Both the position numbers and the translations under genes were made by a program. The notes beneath the pieces are model-generated. The model saw nothing but the letters and a program-made list of their open reading frames with translations. It did no database searches and had not been told where the DNA came from. From Thermoanaerobaculia bacterium (GTDB lineage Bacteria; Acidobacteriota; Thermoanaerobaculia; Gp7-AA8): a stretch of 64,000 nucleotides of DNA. The stretch lies in assembly GCA_038230535.1 (NCBI GenBank), contig JBBRNB010000019.1, positions 2,165 through 66,164 of the forward strand, given 5' to 3'. This document shows, piece by piece, positions 1 through 52,731 of this stretch; within the stretch, counting starts at the first letter, position 1, and each line of letters opens with the position of its first letter.

Positions 1-1488
1 GGGGCTACAGAAGCGGTTACCGGCGCCGGAGGTGGAGCCGGGGCAGTCCGGGTTGTCGTCTTGACGACGATTGGTGCGGTGGTGGTCGTCGGGATAGTCC
101 TGGAGAGCGGAGTCGTCGTCGTCGTGGCGATCACGGATGAAGTTGTGGTCATTGTGGTGGGATTAGTCACCGATGGCGATGTGATCGAGACCGGCGGCGA
201 GGACGCCGCCGGGCCAGCCGGCGGGACGCCAGCGTTCCGGAGTTTGGGTGGGGTATGACGGACGGCTACCACCGGCTCCGGCTTCTGGCGGCCTTGCCAC
301 CAGATCCAGCCTGCATAGCCACCACCCACGACGACCAGGAGAATGAGCAACGGGATCAGCAATCCCCGGCCTGACTTTGACGGTTTCACGGAAACCGCGG
401 AACTGGATGTCTGCACTTCGTCATTTCCTTTCACCGGCACCGCGGCGCGGCGGGCAGCTTCGATCTGCGCGTCGTCGAACCCCCACTGCGGCTCGGCTGC
501 CGGTGTAACCACCGCGGGCATGATCTCGGTCTTGGAAAAGGAGTCGTCGTCGCCCGGTTCGTCCCAAACCGAGTGCGCCGGCGGCTTCGGCGCGGATGCA
601 GGATCCGGCTTCTCCCATGGCGGCAGCACCGGGATGTTCACGGCCGGGCTGTGCGCCGGCTCCCAGCTTTCCGTAGGCGGAGCGGAGACGGGAGGCGCTA
701 CATCATCCAGCGTGAAGTCAGGATTCTCCACGTCCCACTCTGCTGTCTCCGGCGCAGGTGTGAATACCTCATGTTCTGCTGGAGGTTTACCGGAACGGGT
801 CACAAGCCCGAGGAGCCGCAGCGCTTCGAGCAGCTTGTACACATTGAACACATCTTTGCCCGACCTGCTGGCAACCTCGGCTGCGCTATTGCTGCCGCCG
901 ATCTGCGCGACGATTTGTTCCGCGTCTTCGTTCAGCCCGAGGCGGCGGAAACCGTCGTCGAAGTGTGCGGCCTTCTCAAAGACCGCGTTGCCGCTATCCA
1001 TTGCCTGCTCGGACTTGGTGCGGTCGGTGTCGGTGACGACCAGTTCGACGATGATTTGCGACAGAGGGTAGATCGTCCCCTCCTCGCGCTTGGGCAGGTA
1101 GTCAGCGACGATCGTGTAGGAACCGGTCTTCCAACTGTTGATCGAGCGAAGGATGCCGATCACCTGGACACGCCGGGCCCAGGTCAGCTCCTTGCGTGTG
1201 ATGAAACCGAGCCCGAGGAGAGCATCGCCGAGGGTCTCGCTCTCTTTCCGCTTCGCCAACGCCTGCTTGACGTGCTCGCGCGTCACCTTGTTGGCGCGCA
1301 TGAGAATCTCGTCAATGGCATCGGCGCGGTCGTTCGTCGACGCGGAGAGGACATCGCCACCCTTGAAGTAAACGATCTTGATGATGCCGTCGCTCTCGAA
1401 ACGGATCGCGCCGGTGAACAGCTCGCTCCCGAGCTCGACGAGCCGCTGAATCAAATCAATCTCGCCGATTTCGCCTTCGAAGCTCATT
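1..1488 (-). CDS. DUF4388 (PatA-like) domain protein. N-terminal DUF4388 domain, one TM helix, long Pro/Thr-rich low-complexity C-terminal tail. Partial: C-terminus runs off the window start.
   Basis: Reverse translation from ATG (complement of 'cat' ~1486-1488) gives MSFEGEIGEIDLIQRLVELGSELFTGAIRFESDGIIKIVYFKGGDV..., a typical DUF4388 N-terminus. Third-position GC is very high on the minus frame, whereas the listed + ORFs 573..1565 and 343..1071 show mixed codon bias. Absent from the ORF track because it lacks an in-window stop. Confidence 0.6.
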
Positions 1489-1616
1489 GGTGCCCACCCT
1501 TTGCGCGGCATTATCGCATGCGTGAATTGGCGGAGTCGGGTGTCGGGGGTAGGACGCGCCCGTAATGAATGTCTCTGCCCGATCCAACCCCAAACACCCG
1601 ACCCACGACTCCCGCA

Positions 1617-3437
<1,821 letters not shown>

Positions 3438-3666
3438 CGGGTCCAGGTAGAACAAGTTACGAGTGGAATGTCATCCCGCGGCATGCAGTCATCGAATCGA
3501 CTGGTCAACACGTTGACGAGTCAATAGGAGGTGTTGAGACAAGGCGATCCCGCGGCCGGGACGGGGATGGCCGGGATTCACGGGCCGGCTTGTCAGCAGC
3601 CACGAATGGGATCGCCATCTGACGGCGGCGTCGCTGAACACGGGTACGATCGAGCTCGACCCTCAC

Positions 3667-3899
3667 GAGAATCTCGCCGATATCCACGAACTTCTCGCCG
3701 ATGTCGACGAGAATCTCGCCGATGTCCGCAGACTATCTCGCCGATGTCCACGAGAATCCAGCGAATATTCACGACAATCTCGCGAATATTCACGAGAATC
3801 TTGCGAACATTGACGAGAATCTCGCGAATATCCACGAGAATCTCGCGAACATTGACGACCCCTCTCGCGGATGTCGGCGAACTTCCAGCCGGCATTCAC
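3667..3899. repeat. 11 tandem copies of a 21-bp unit (consensus GAGAATCTCGCGAATATTCAC, two subfamilies). Each unit holds two palindromes, CGAGAaTCTCG and GAATATTC.
   Basis: Direct reading of the intergenic region between the esterase stop (3972) and the uvrC start. The 21-bp period keeps all six frames open, which produces the spurious ORFs 3531..4063. Confidence 0.85.
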
Positions 3900-3971
3900 T
3901 AACTTTTTGTCGATGTCCGAGAACGCTATCGTCATCAACTGCAACCGCGGATGGGGTTCGCGTCGACAAAA

Positions 3972-4595
3972 TCACATCCGCGCCAGGAACTCCCCTGCCG
4001 CGCTGCGGAACTCCGCCGTCCATTCGTGGCCGCCGTCAAAGACGCACGTGCTGGCCGTGGTAACGCTCGACAGAAACTTCAAGTCTTTCTCGAACTTCTC
4101 CTGTGTGTACCAATCCTCCCGCGTTCCTCGCCCGATGAGCACCGGTGGAAGACGAGGCGGCGAAATGAAGAGCTCTGGCGGAACATCCCCGCCGAGGGCG
4201 ATCAGGCCGGTTGCCGCCGATCCGACGGCAGCGCGATAGGCCATTGCCACACCCTGAGAGAAGCCGATGAAGACCAGTTGCTTCGGCGATGGGAACTGCG
4301 CGACCACCGATCGGACGTACGCGCGGTTGTCCTCGATTGCCAGCTCCCGGTCGAGACTGGTCATCCACGACGCCGCGATCGTGCCCGTACGATTCACATA
4401 GAAAGGATGGAGCCCCTGCACGGCGACAGTGGTCCAACGCTCGACGCCGGGGATCTTCTGCAGCTCGGCCATATGGATCGCTGCCGTTTCGCCGTAGCCA
4501 TGAAAGCCGGCGAGGAGACGTTCTGGCGGACCTTGCTGGACGAGATAGTGGCCATGGACGGAGGTGGCGATGGTACGGATGTCGAAGTCAGTCAT
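3972..4595 (-). CDS. Alpha/beta hydrolase, phospholipase/carboxylesterase family
   Basis: GFSQG nucleophile elbow (GxSxG), ~207 aa, dienelactone-hydrolase/carboxylesterase-like architecture. Confidence 0.6.
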   Translation of the reverse strand: MTDFDIRTIATSVHGHYLVQQGPPERLLAGFHGYGETAAIHMAELQKIPGVERWTTVAVQGLHPFYVNRTGTIAASWMTSLDRELAIEDNRAYVRSVVAQFPSPKQLVFIGFSQGVAMAYRAAVGSAATGLIALGGDVPPELFISPPRLPPVLIGRGTREDWYTQEKFEKDLKFLSSVTTASTCVFDGGHEWTAEFRSAAGEFLARM

Positions 4596-4623
4596 CCTTG
4601 AATCGTAGCTACAATGCGCCCGC

Positions 4624-5358
4624 GTGTCGCGCCTTACCCTCGTCGTTCCCTGCTACAACGAAGAGCGCCGGCTCGACGTGGAGGCTTTTCGGCGCGTTTC
4701 CGCCGGGGGCTGCGAAGTCGATTTCCTCTTCGTGAACGACGGCAGCCGGGACGGCACTCTCGGACTGCTCGAGAAGCTCCGCGACTCCGATCCGAAGCGC
4801 TTCGCCGTCTTGAATCTGGAGCGCAACAGCGGGAAAGCCGAGGCGGTGCGGCGCGGATTTGTCGCCGCGATGGAGCAACCAGCCGGCTATGTCGGTTTCT
4901 GGGATGCCGACCTGGCCACTCCCCTCGCCGAGCTTCCAGGCTTTCTCGACGTTCTGGAGTCGCGTCCGGCGATTCAGATCGTGATGGGATCCCGCGTCCG
5001 CCTCCTCGGCCGCGAGATCAGCCGCCGCCCTTCACGTCACTACGCCGGCCGCGTCGGTGCGACGCTGATCTCATCGACCCTCGGTCTGGCGGTCTACGAT
5101 ACTCAGTGCGGCGCGAAACTCTTCCGTACGAACGACACGCTTCGCGAGGTCTTCGCCACTCCGTTCCTCTCGCGCTGGATCTTCGACGTCGAGATCATCG
5201 CCCGATACGTCGAGCGCCTTGGCCGCGATGCCGTGGCCGGCGCAATCTACGAGTTACCCGTCACCCGCTGGCACGACGTGACCGGCTCCAAGGTCAAGTC
5301 GCACGACTTCCTGCGAGCGCTGCTCGATCTCTGGAAGATCCGGCGTGCGTATCGGTAG
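4624..5358 (+). CDS. Glycosyltransferase family 2 (dolichyl-phosphate mannose synthase-like)
   Basis: LTLVVPCYNEE...VNDGSRDGT...DAD motifs typical of GT-A fold GT2. Confidence 0.75.
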   Translation: MSRLTLVVPCYNEERRLDVEAFRRVSAGGCEVDFLFVNDGSRDGTLGLLEKLRDSDPKRFAVLNLERNSGKAEAVRRGFVAAMEQPAGYVGFWDADLATPLAELPGFLDVLESRPAIQIVMGSRVRLLGREISRRPSRHYAGRVGATLISSTLGLAVYDTQCGAKLFRTNDTLREVFATPFLSRWIFDVEIIARYVERLGRDAVAGAIYELPVTRWHDVTGSKVKSHDFLRALLDLWKIRRAYR

Positions 5359-5592
5359 ATCGGTGGATCAGAGGGTCGGTGGATCGGTAGATCGGTGGAT
5401 CAGAAGGGTCTGTGGATCGGTAGATCAGTAGATCGGTGGATCGGTGGATCAGAACCAGGTTGGCTCTGGTCAGAGGCAGTTGGTTCCGATCCACTGACCT
5501 ACTGATCTACTGATCCACTGACTCACATCCACCGACCGGCCGATCTACTGATCCACTGATCTACTGCTCCACCCGACTGATTTACAATCCCC
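5356..5592. repeat. GATC-rich inverted-array intergenic element. Left arm has repeated GATCGGTGGATCAG units; right arm has CTGATCCACTGATCTACTG units.
   Basis: The arms are reverse complements built from ~9-10-nt TGGATCAGT-like units and sit strictly intergenic. Same family as 15836, 21421, 23797, 26058 and 52003. Confidence 0.8.
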
Positions 5593-6874: not shown

Positions 6875-6875
6875 T

Positions 6876-6962
6876 GGGGAGTGGGGTGTGGGGTGTGGAG
6901 ACGCGAATATTGAATGTTCGATGTCTGCCTCCCACTCCCCACCCCCTACTCCCCACCCCCCG
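6876..6962. repeat. G-tract/C-tract inverted element. GGGGAGTGGGGTGTGGGGTGTGG on the + strand, ~30 nt spacer, then CCCACTCCCCACCCCCTACTCCCCACCCCCC (G4 motif on the minus strand).
   Basis: Direct reading. At least 4 runs of G3 or longer on each strand. A second copy sits at 52638..52716. Confidence 0.7.
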
Positions 6963-15834: not shown

Positions 15835-15835
15835 T

Positions 15836-15992
15836 GGAGTAGTGGAGTAGTGGATCAGTGATCGGTGGATCAGGCACAATTGCGCCCCACGCCTGAACCA
15901 AAGCCGCGTTCCGCATACCTGTCATCCAGGATGACAGGAAGGGCTTGGCCCTTGTTCCTGATCCACTGATCCACCTGTCACTGATCCACTGA
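15836..15992. repeat. GATC-rich inverted-array intergenic element (TGGAGTAGTGGAGTAGTGGATCAGTGATCGGTGGATCAGG ... CCTGATCCACTGATCCACCTGTCACTGATCCACTGACC). The loop contains the palindrome CCTGTCATCCaGGATGACAGG.
   Basis: Direct reading at a convergent gene junction. Confidence 0.8.
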
Positions 15993-16268
15993 CCCACGGA
16001 CACGCCGAATGTATGCGCAGACAGCCAGAGCGCTCAACCCCGTTACCAGCCAAAGTGCAATCCACCCCACCGGCGCCGATCGCATCCAGTTCCACAAAGC
16101 CAGCGTGATCGCCCAGAGACCGTAGACGAAGAGAAACATCCGGCGGTGACCGCGGTCGTCTTCGACACCGGCGGCGATGCTTCCGCCGAGGATCATCGTG
16201 GGGATGAGGCCGAAGACGATGTTCAGGATGTGAATCACGAAAGGGTCACGTCCGATACCGCACGTCAA
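15978..16268 (-). CDS. Small hydrophobic membrane protein, last gene of the rSAM/GT operon
   Basis: ~96 aa, 3 predicted TM helices. It overlaps the stop of the upstream rSAM gene. The start is uncertain. Confidence 0.35.
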   Translation of the reverse strand: MTCGIGRDPFVIHILNIVFGLIPTMILGGSIAAGVEDDRGHRRMFLFVYGLWAITLALWNWMRSAPVGWIALWLVTGLSALAVCAYIRRVRGSVDQ

Positions 16269-21420: not shown

Positions 21421-21600
21421 TGTGGAGTAGATTAGTGGATTGGTAGCTCAGTCGATCAGGAACCCCAGCCGCGAAGTCTTGATTGGAGTCGATCACTGGA
21501 TCAGGCGATCCGTTGACCGGGAGTCCCCAGGTTCATTCCGACCGAGCTCCGTCGTCCTGATCCACTAATCTACTAACCTACTGATCCACTGATGGACTGA
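21421..21600. repeat. GATC-rich inverted-array intergenic element (divergent promoter region)
   Basis: TGGAGTAGATTAGTGGATTGGTAGCTCAGTCGATCAGG ... CCTGATCCACTAATCTACTAACCTACTGATCCACTGATGGACTG. Confidence 0.75.
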
Positions 21601-23791: not shown

Positions 23792-23796
23792 GAGAG

Positions 23797-23925
23797 TCGA
23801 TCGGTGATCAGTAGATCAGTGATCAGAGGAGCAGTGGATCAGGACAGAGGTTGACTCAGTGGTACTTAGAAGAGAAACACCGCCTTCTGACCCACTCATT
23901 GCGAATCCACTGATCGACTGATCCA
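23797..23925. repeat. GATC-rich inverted-array intergenic element
   Basis: GATCGGTGATCAGTAGATCAGTGATCAGAGGAGCAGTGGATCAGG ... GAATCCACTGATCGACTGATCCATC. Confidence 0.75.
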
Positions 23926-26057: not shown

Positions 26058-26224
26058 GAATCAGTGGAGCAGTGGAGCAGTGGAGCAGTCGATCTGTAAT
26101 CAGGCGGCCTGATTCTATCGACCAATCCACTGATCCACTGATCCACTGATCGACTTCTCTACAGTCGATCCGTAGTCAGGAAGCCTGATTCTGATCGACC
26201 AATCCACTGATCCACTGATCGACT
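26058..26224. repeat. GATC-rich inverted-array intergenic element, tandem double copy (CAGTGGAGCAGTGGAGCAGTGGAGCAG ... CCACTGATCCACTGATCCACTGATCGAC, then a second partial copy)
   Basis: Direct reading. The loop has the palindrome AATCAGGCGGCCTGATT. Confidence 0.75.
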
Positions 26225-52002: not shown

Positions 52003-52110
52003 CAGATCAGTGATCGGTAGATCGGCAATCAGGACAAGCCGCATATTCCTGATCCACTGATCTACTAATCCACTGATCTACTGATCACCGATCTTCTGAT
52101 CACCGATCAA
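52003..52110. repeat. GATC-rich inverted-array intergenic element (compact copy) with a short loop containing AAGCCGCATATTCCTG
   Basis: CAGATCAGTGATCGGTAGATCGG ... CCTGATCCACTGATCTACTAATCCACTGATCTACTGATCACCGATC. Confidence 0.75.
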
Positions 52111-52637: not shown

Positions 52638-52716
52638 GTGTGGGGAGTGGGTTGTAGAGGGTGCGCTTAACCCTGACGTAACTCCCACACCCCACACCCC
52701 ACCCCCCACTCCCCCC
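52638..52716. repeat. G-tract/C-tract inverted element, second copy (GTGTGGGGAGTGGG ... CCCACACCCCACACCCCACCCCCCACTCCCCCC); strong G4 motif on the minus strand
   Basis: Direct reading in the divergent intergenic region between the gamma-CA and DUF1211 genes. Confidence 0.7.
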
Positions 52717-52731
52717 AGCTACAATCTCCCC

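Follow-up and report, generated by a model that had tools for sequence, protein, structure and literature searches.

A self-complementary 21-bp tandem array between an esterase gene and uvrC in Thermoanaerobaculia: a probable intergenic minisatellite

In a 64-kb stretch of Thermoanaerobaculia DNA (64,000 nucleotides; hereafter the window), an array of 21-bp units lies between an esterase gene and uvrC. We read it best as a lineage-specific, hairpin-forming minisatellite in intergenic DNA, comparable in kind to REP/BIME elements or VNTRs. We consider it probable that the array is a non-coding, self-complementary minisatellite of a small family, among the hairpin-forming intergenic tandem repeats of Thermoanaerobaculia. 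The first-pass annotation had preferred an iteron or multi-operator array and had listed a minisatellite as an alternative; it is this alternative that the evidence favours, through the anatomy of the units, the lineage-specific stretch that holds them and their self-complementarity.

Anatomy and folding of the array

The array had been described as 11 head-to-tail copies of a 21-bp unit in a gap of about 530 bp between the esterase stop and the uvrC start. The spacer measures 534 nt and contains the array upstream of uvrC, and 11 units were indeed found, but the unit length does not hold throughout: segmentation by hand gives nine 21-nt units and two 22-nt units (Table 1). At 3664-3849, TRF detects 8.8 copies with a period of 21 and 79% matches. 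The one other assembly, a Logan assembly from SRR19962015, agrees with the window at 100% over 972-5201, and since it is independent, the 22-nt units are not one-off assembly errors. Units 1-4 form a subfamily A (..CTCGCCGATGTCCAC), units 5-9 form a subfamily B (..CTCGCGAAYATTSAC), and units 10 and 11 are degenerate. The array thus shows the features of a minisatellite, with non-coding head-to-tail units in the 10-100 bp range, decayed edges and locally homogenised subfamilies. The window holds one such locus: allowing up to three mismatches, the consensus 21-mer matched six times, every time within the array (expected 0; none in 100 shuffles). A CRISPR array was ruled out, as the units are contiguous and without unique spacers.

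Two nested palindromes had been assigned to each unit, which is true of the consensus only. CGAGAATCTCG is perfect in four of the 11 units and GAATATTC in two, both are perfect together in none, and they are not nested but alternate along the array with their centres 10.5 bp apart. The proposed spacing of dyad-symmetric cores by one helical turn is borne out by these centres and by the period of 21-22 bp. Neither palindrome is enriched in the rest of the 64-kb window.

When rotated, the reverse complement of the consensus unit is identical to the unit itself at 18 of 21 positions (p ~0.001 against shuffles), and because of this near-identity the whole array is self-complementary. For 3640-3945, the minimum free energy (MFE) is -148.1 kcal/mol on the minus strand (shuffles -109.1 +/- 4.8, z -8.1) and -116.7 kcal/mol on the plus strand (z -7.4). 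The minus strand folds better on account of one C/A position in the unit, where C.A mismatches on the plus strand turn into G.U pairs on the minus strand; as this position is copied along with the unit, the G.U asymmetry has to be taken as one event and gives weak evidence of RNA-level selection. The predicted 90-pair stem has no T run. Against Rfam 15, the array gave only sub-threshold matches to miRNA hairpins, and nothing in the whole window reached a gathering score.

Table 1. Coordinates of the array, its surroundings and other repeats (window positions unless a relative's locus is named)
Feature	Position	Strand	Remarks
uvrC	1617-3437	-	606 aa from ATG at 3437
Conserved uvrC upstream block	3438-3523	-	86 nt, from alignment; candidate operator/promoter, separate from the array
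Lineage-specific stretch holding the array	3524-3978	.	~450 nt; missing in L004-L008, L121, L124, L125
Decayed unit flanking the array on one side	3646-3666	.	12/21 to consensus
Core tandem array	3667-3899	.	11 head-to-tail units, consensus GAGAATCTCGCGAATATTCAC; segmented by hand
22-nt unit U4	3730-3751	.	breaks every reading frame
22-nt unit U10	3857-3878	.	second frame break
Two decayed units flanking the array on the other side	3900-3941	.	10/21 and 12/21 to consensus
Predicted long single RNA hairpin	3668-3886	-	90 pairs (39 GC, 35 AU, 16 GU), loop 3774-3780
Predicted esterase/phospholipase	3972-4595	-	207 aa
Octamer hairpin elements	5351-5572, 15835-15997, 21557-21593, 23795-23925, 26062-26224, 52004-52109		
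Second 21-bp array family	L002 3397-3830, L003 3408-3865, L122 3150-3560		esterase/uvrC junction of sister clade

The esterase-uvrC junction in relatives

On the minus strand, the order is esterase, array, uvrC. A UvrC search returned 80 loci from MAGs of Thermoanaerobaculia and Acidobacteriota with 74-94% identity (L numbers below designate individual loci or contigs, from this and other searches), and the order of esterase followed by uvrC is retained in nearly all of them (~70 relatives). The closest homologue of the esterase reaches 84% identity, and the databases contain no strain-level relative.

Directly upstream of uvrC lies an 86-nt block that is kept in the eleven closest of twelve aligned sequences. 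Its layout is TGACTCGTCA, a 6-nt gap, TGACCAGTCA, then TGAC, GGGATGACA, CTTGTTCTA and the ATG, which gives two TGAC-N2-GTCA palindromes 16 bp apart and extra TGAC half-sites. The TGA of the first palindrome, TGACTCGTCA, ends the esterase gene in most relatives; in the rest of the window, the full palindrome is no more frequent than expected by chance. This block, and not the array, is the candidate control region of uvrC; the array lies 122 nt farther upstream. A scan for promoters and terminators returned nothing, and an intrinsic terminator (a short GC-rich stem with a U tract) was not found in 3300-4100.

The 10-mer ATCCCGCGGC (GCCGCGGGAT on the uvrC sense strand) occurs both in the block (3473-3482) and in the lineage-specific stretch (3547-3556), 74 nt apart, and could be a trace of local duplication, if a weak one (p = 0.016). 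The idea that the 122-nt GC-rich flank is a duplicate of the uvrC block was not accepted, as this 10-mer is its only match. L118 is the relative whose full-length UvrC is most similar (94.5% identity); there, an insert of about 100 nt at 3060-3160, with a duplicated GGCCGGGTTCTCCAACCCG motif, separates the uvrC block from the ATG.

The alignments showed that the array lies in about 450 nt specific to this lineage, between the esterase stop and the palindrome that opens the uvrC block. In the eight relatives that lack this stretch (Table 1), the TGA of TGACTCGTCA ends the esterase gene, directly adjoining the uvrC block; in the window, the stretch itself supplies a new stop codon (TGA, 3972-3974). 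Since most close relatives lack the array and keep the uvrC block, the comparison shows that the array is dispensable for the control of uvrC.

Three relatives (L002, L003 and L122) carry 14-20 copies of different 21-bp units (AGATCGATGTCACGAGTTCAC, AGATCGATGACTCGAATCGAC and CGATGACTCGAATCGAGTGAC) at the same junction. Some units of the L003 array are 22 nt long, and the L002 array has stops in all six frames. In their units, GATC occurs together with CGATGACTCG or TTGACTCG, which corresponds to the left half of the palindrome in the neighbouring uvrC block and suggests that operator-proximal sequence was amplified. In a neighbour-joining tree of uvrC, these three relatives form one clade and the window is on a separate branch; L121 and L118, which have no arrays, also fall outside the clade. 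Homology of the window unit with the three units was not accepted: the best p value, 0.0075, is uncorrected for 32 comparisons and was obtained in inverted orientation only. The window array was thus either gained independently or is a relic that has been heavily remodelled, and it is dispensable either way. Selection for a period of two helical turns could be the reason why 21-bp periods recur at this junction in a separate clade. Intrinsic curvature was rejected as the cause of the period: a wedge-model estimate predicts a straight window array (0.93 vs 0.95 for random segments) but curved L003 and L122 arrays, so curvature is not common to the arrays.

Other relatives fill the junction, or sites near it, in other ways. 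L013 has a hairpin made of an inverted tandem array of a 9-mer (ATGGGACYR) at 3862-3960, and the spacers of L126 (2630-2720), L017, L016, L057, L043, L054 and L011 contain long GC-rich hairpins with perfect stems of 20-35 bp; on the sense strand, these lineage-specific hairpins of eight relatives have z values of -5.4 to -10.6. L009, L015, L023 and L024 have kilobase-scale inserts that, judged by eye, are apparently coding. Overall, 13 of the 18 relatives' spacers with extra DNA fold at z <= -4, and their sequences are unrelated. Different hairpin-forming repeats have come to occupy this one junction independently of each other.

Related arrays and other hairpin repeats

A closely related array was found outside this junction. 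L130 (JGI Ga0613053_00132, 5.7 kb) has a GC content of 62.0%, equal to that of the window, and at 2944-3119 it contains 8.4 copies of GAGAATCTCGCGAACATTCAC, which is identical at 20 of 21 positions to the window consensus and to unit 9. The two arrays match by blastn with E = 6e-29, and their flanks are unrelated: the L130 array is not near uvrC, and its neighbours encode HicA/HicB, barstar, hypothetical proteins and two HTH proteins. The closest relatives of a large protein on L130 are from Thermoanaerobaculia MAGs (70% and 63% identity), so the contig looks like part of a Thermoanaerobaculia-like genome. The L130 array also folds strongly (MFE -127.9 kcal/mol, z -14.9 on the minus strand; -87.1 kcal/mol, z -9.6 on the plus strand). 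Its better-folding strand is antisense to the flanking genes and that of the window array is sense, which shows that orientation relative to transcription is not conserved. Two further repeats were observed on L130: a second short 21-bp array (TCAGCAGCATCGCCGAGAATC, 2.9 copies, 3693-3752) just upstream of a 126-aa ORF, and an inverted-repeat hairpin of a heptamer (ATTCTGC, 3165-3235) about 45 nt past the main array.

A pattern scan of metagenomes gave 36 matches, among which only L106, and possibly L092, look like related non-coding arrays. Almost all of the matches were set aside as coding heptads within long ORFs; their self-complementarity is low, and the pattern, by its design, had selected for them. 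L106 (63% GC) has a related 21-bp intergenic array between carB and a convergent gene, with an MFE of -103.1 kcal/mol on the plus strand (z -10.3). Its unit has CGAGAATCTYG in common with the window unit, as the search pattern dictated, and also has GTCAACA in common with the L130 unit, which the pattern did not dictate.

Tandem-repeat hairpins with shorter units are frequent in the lineage. The window contains a dispersed family of at least six intergenic elements (Table 1) that consist of an octamer array, a loop and the reverse-complement array. The left arm is built from, for example, CAGTGGAT or GATCGGTG, the right arm from the reverse complement ATCCACTG, and the loop is 20-80 nt long. 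They occupy entire intergenic spacers, abutting start and stop codons irrespective of gene orientation, and had no Rfam match in the window. Heptamer arrays of TGGGGTG and CCCACCC were observed at 6875-6898 and 6931-6961, just past the stop of an aminotransferase gene, and one of CCCACAC at 52684-52717; these are probably further tandem-repeat hairpins. In L122, inverted heptamer arrays (TGTTGAA... / ...TTCAACA) lie at 2250-2470 between glycosyltransferase and esterase genes, which shows that every species possesses a short-unit hairpin family of its own. When TRF was run on the relatives' loci, periods of 7, 14, 8 and 16 dominated. A survey of prokaryotic satellites considers dispersed non-coding families rare, and unique non-coding bacterial satellites are generally ascribed to replication anomalies (PMC6749651).

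For the minisatellite reading, we propose the following course of events. The stretch at 3524-3978 would have been gained by insertion, and the array may then have grown by slipped-strand or hairpin-assisted duplication together with unequal exchange, with the central units staying homogenised and the edge units decaying. The consequence would be structural. The DNA would be prone to form a cruciform, and a transcript reading through from the esterase gene to uvrC would contain an imperfect hairpin of about 90 bp, where stalling, termination or cleavage could occur.

That another genome has a 20/21-identical unit, at a locus which is not homologous, is hard to fit with pure neutral drift, and the presence of this unit in both the window and L130 suggests spread between loci and genomes; the near-identity would imply either mobility or a constraint on the unit sequence. 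Together with the recurrent 21-bp periods in a separate clade, this keeps a functional or mobile reading alive. In its widest form, which we regard as speculative, the array would belong to an as yet undescribed class of intergenic elements in Thermoanaerobaculia: long hairpins with arms of tandem 7-, 8-, 9- or 21-nt units that colonise junctions beside short palindromes and spread between loci and genomes. An unknown mobilising enzyme could drive this spread, or a dimeric protein could instead read the GANTC-centred CGAGAATCTCG at two-turn spacing. If the sharing of units does mean mobility or protein recognition, this would be a new family of repeat elements in Acidobacteriota. For the biology of uvrC, the array matters little, given that the candidate control region is the adjoining block. 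What the array marks is the building and turnover of intergenic DNA in a poorly known soil lineage.

Alternative readings and known systems

REP elements and terminators without a U tract act as terminators, insulators or transcript stabilisers in other bacteria, and the array might likewise be a selected structural element, an RNA hairpin or DNA cruciform that serves as terminator, insulator or transcript stabiliser between the esterase gene and uvrC. We regard this as unlikely. The minus strand, which is the sense strand of both flanking genes, does fold best (-148 vs -117 kcal/mol), most relatives with extra DNA at the junction have a strong hairpin, and the L106 array lies between convergent genes. 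However, the closest relatives are without any hairpin insert, no terminator-like site was found (3300-4100), and the strand asymmetry goes back to the one copied C/A position. In addition, the strand that folds better in L130 is the antisense one, and the L002 array occupies the same site without excess structure (z ~0).

Rather less probable is a protein-binding array, on which dimers would sit every 10.5 or 21 bp, as an operator or decoy of uvrC or as an iteron-like or centromere-like site. This is close to what the first-pass annotation had put forward, an iteron or multi-operator array for a dimeric protein, and the part of that proposal that stands is the geometry: a period of 21-22 bp corresponds to two turns of the helix, with a distance of 10.5 bp from one dyad centre to the next. 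The unit is also conserved at 20 of 21 positions between two genomes, the half-palindrome CGATGACTCG or TTGACTCG of the uvrC block is present in the L003 and L122 units (which have 8-10 nt in common with the block), and L092 carries a symmetric variant, CCAGATTCTGG. The remaining evidence speaks against binding. The nearest relatives lack the array and retain the conserved uvrC block, the palindromes are broken in most units (perfect in 4/11 and 2/11) and are not enriched elsewhere in the window, and the L130 copy is not near uvrC. The array has no adjacent rep, par or regulator gene and no similarity to plasmids or phages (blastn; viral pattern scan). TGAC half-sites of the uvrC block are scarce in the window units, and TGACTCGTCA recurs in the window no more than by chance. 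As to the motif of the block, the window units have only TTGACGAG in common with it, at two of the 11 unit junctions, where an 11-mer matches at 10 of 11 positions with p ~0.05 by estimate.

The reading as a coding or recently pseudogenised segment of a heptad protein (ENLANIH, coiled-coil-like) is very improbable, in agreement with the earlier judgement, and we regard it as close to refuted. In the plus-strand heptad frame, L and I do fall at the a and d positions of a coiled coil, and many unit differences are synonymous or conservative. However, ENLA[DN][IV][HD] can be read through only with two +1 shifts, VNIREIL on the minus strand is interrupted likewise by the two 22-nt units, and no start codon for the heptad frame was found upstream of the array. 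It had been claimed that every frame is open through the array; in fact, two of the six frames have stops inside it. The four ORFs crossing the array gave no Pfam match, gene calling on the Logan contig placed nothing in the esterase-uvrC spacer, and six ORFs running through the array, taken with the start codons chosen here, were all absent from a collection of 15 billion proteins. A phmmer search with the longest array ORF against 1.84 billion representatives did match heptad proteins, but P0124, the best specific one, is in turn an ORF call that extends over a homologous, non-coding array and on through a heptamer hairpin. Such arrays give rise to spurious ORF calls, and P0124 in a public protein set is one example. 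Two other peptide matches, P0130 and P0157, were discarded as low-GC satellites unrelated to the array. The L002 array, with its stops in all frames, and the L003 array, with its 22-nt units, are non-coding too, and close relatives lack the array region. The ORF preceding the array has a GC3 of about 59% (hand-counted) vs 70-90% in genes; by hand tally, five of seven third codon positions vary vs seven of 14 others, a contrast too small to inform.

Among known systems, plasmid iterons resemble the array in their two-turn period, copy number and head-to-tail order. The R6K gamma ori has seven contiguous 22-bp iterons, those of F, P1 and RK2 are 19-22 bp long, and the array, with 11 units at a period of 21-22 bp, agrees with iteron direct repeats of 17-22 bp spaced at about 22 bp. 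Unlike iterons, which are asymmetric, the array units are dyad-symmetric, and the array lies without a rep gene or plasmid or phage similarity in a conserved chromosomal setting, flanked by the esterase gene and uvrC, and is missing in close relatives. Centromere-like arrays, such as F sopC (12 units of 43 bp, each with an inverted repeat) and parC of pSK41 and R1, are likewise tandem units that each have a dyad-symmetric core, but the window array has no par genes nearby and no replicon context.

The array is closer to non-coding minisatellites and VNTRs (MIRU in mycobacteria; the satellites in PMC6749651), with which it has in common head-to-tail units of tens of bp in a spacer of co-oriented genes, decayed edges, block-wise unit subfamilies and restriction to a lineage. 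MIRUs differ in being 40-100 bp long with small ORFs that overlap neighbouring genes, whereas the 22-nt units of the array break all frames. REP/BIME clusters of enterobacteria and pseudomonads have units of 30-40 nt in alternating orientation, in contrast to the self-complementary 21-nt unit of the array and its single copy in 64 kb. Like the array, these clusters are intergenic and non-coding, consist of palindromic, hairpin-forming units clustered head to tail, lie at gene ends, are present or absent between related genomes and have related copies at unrelated loci, as in the window and L130.
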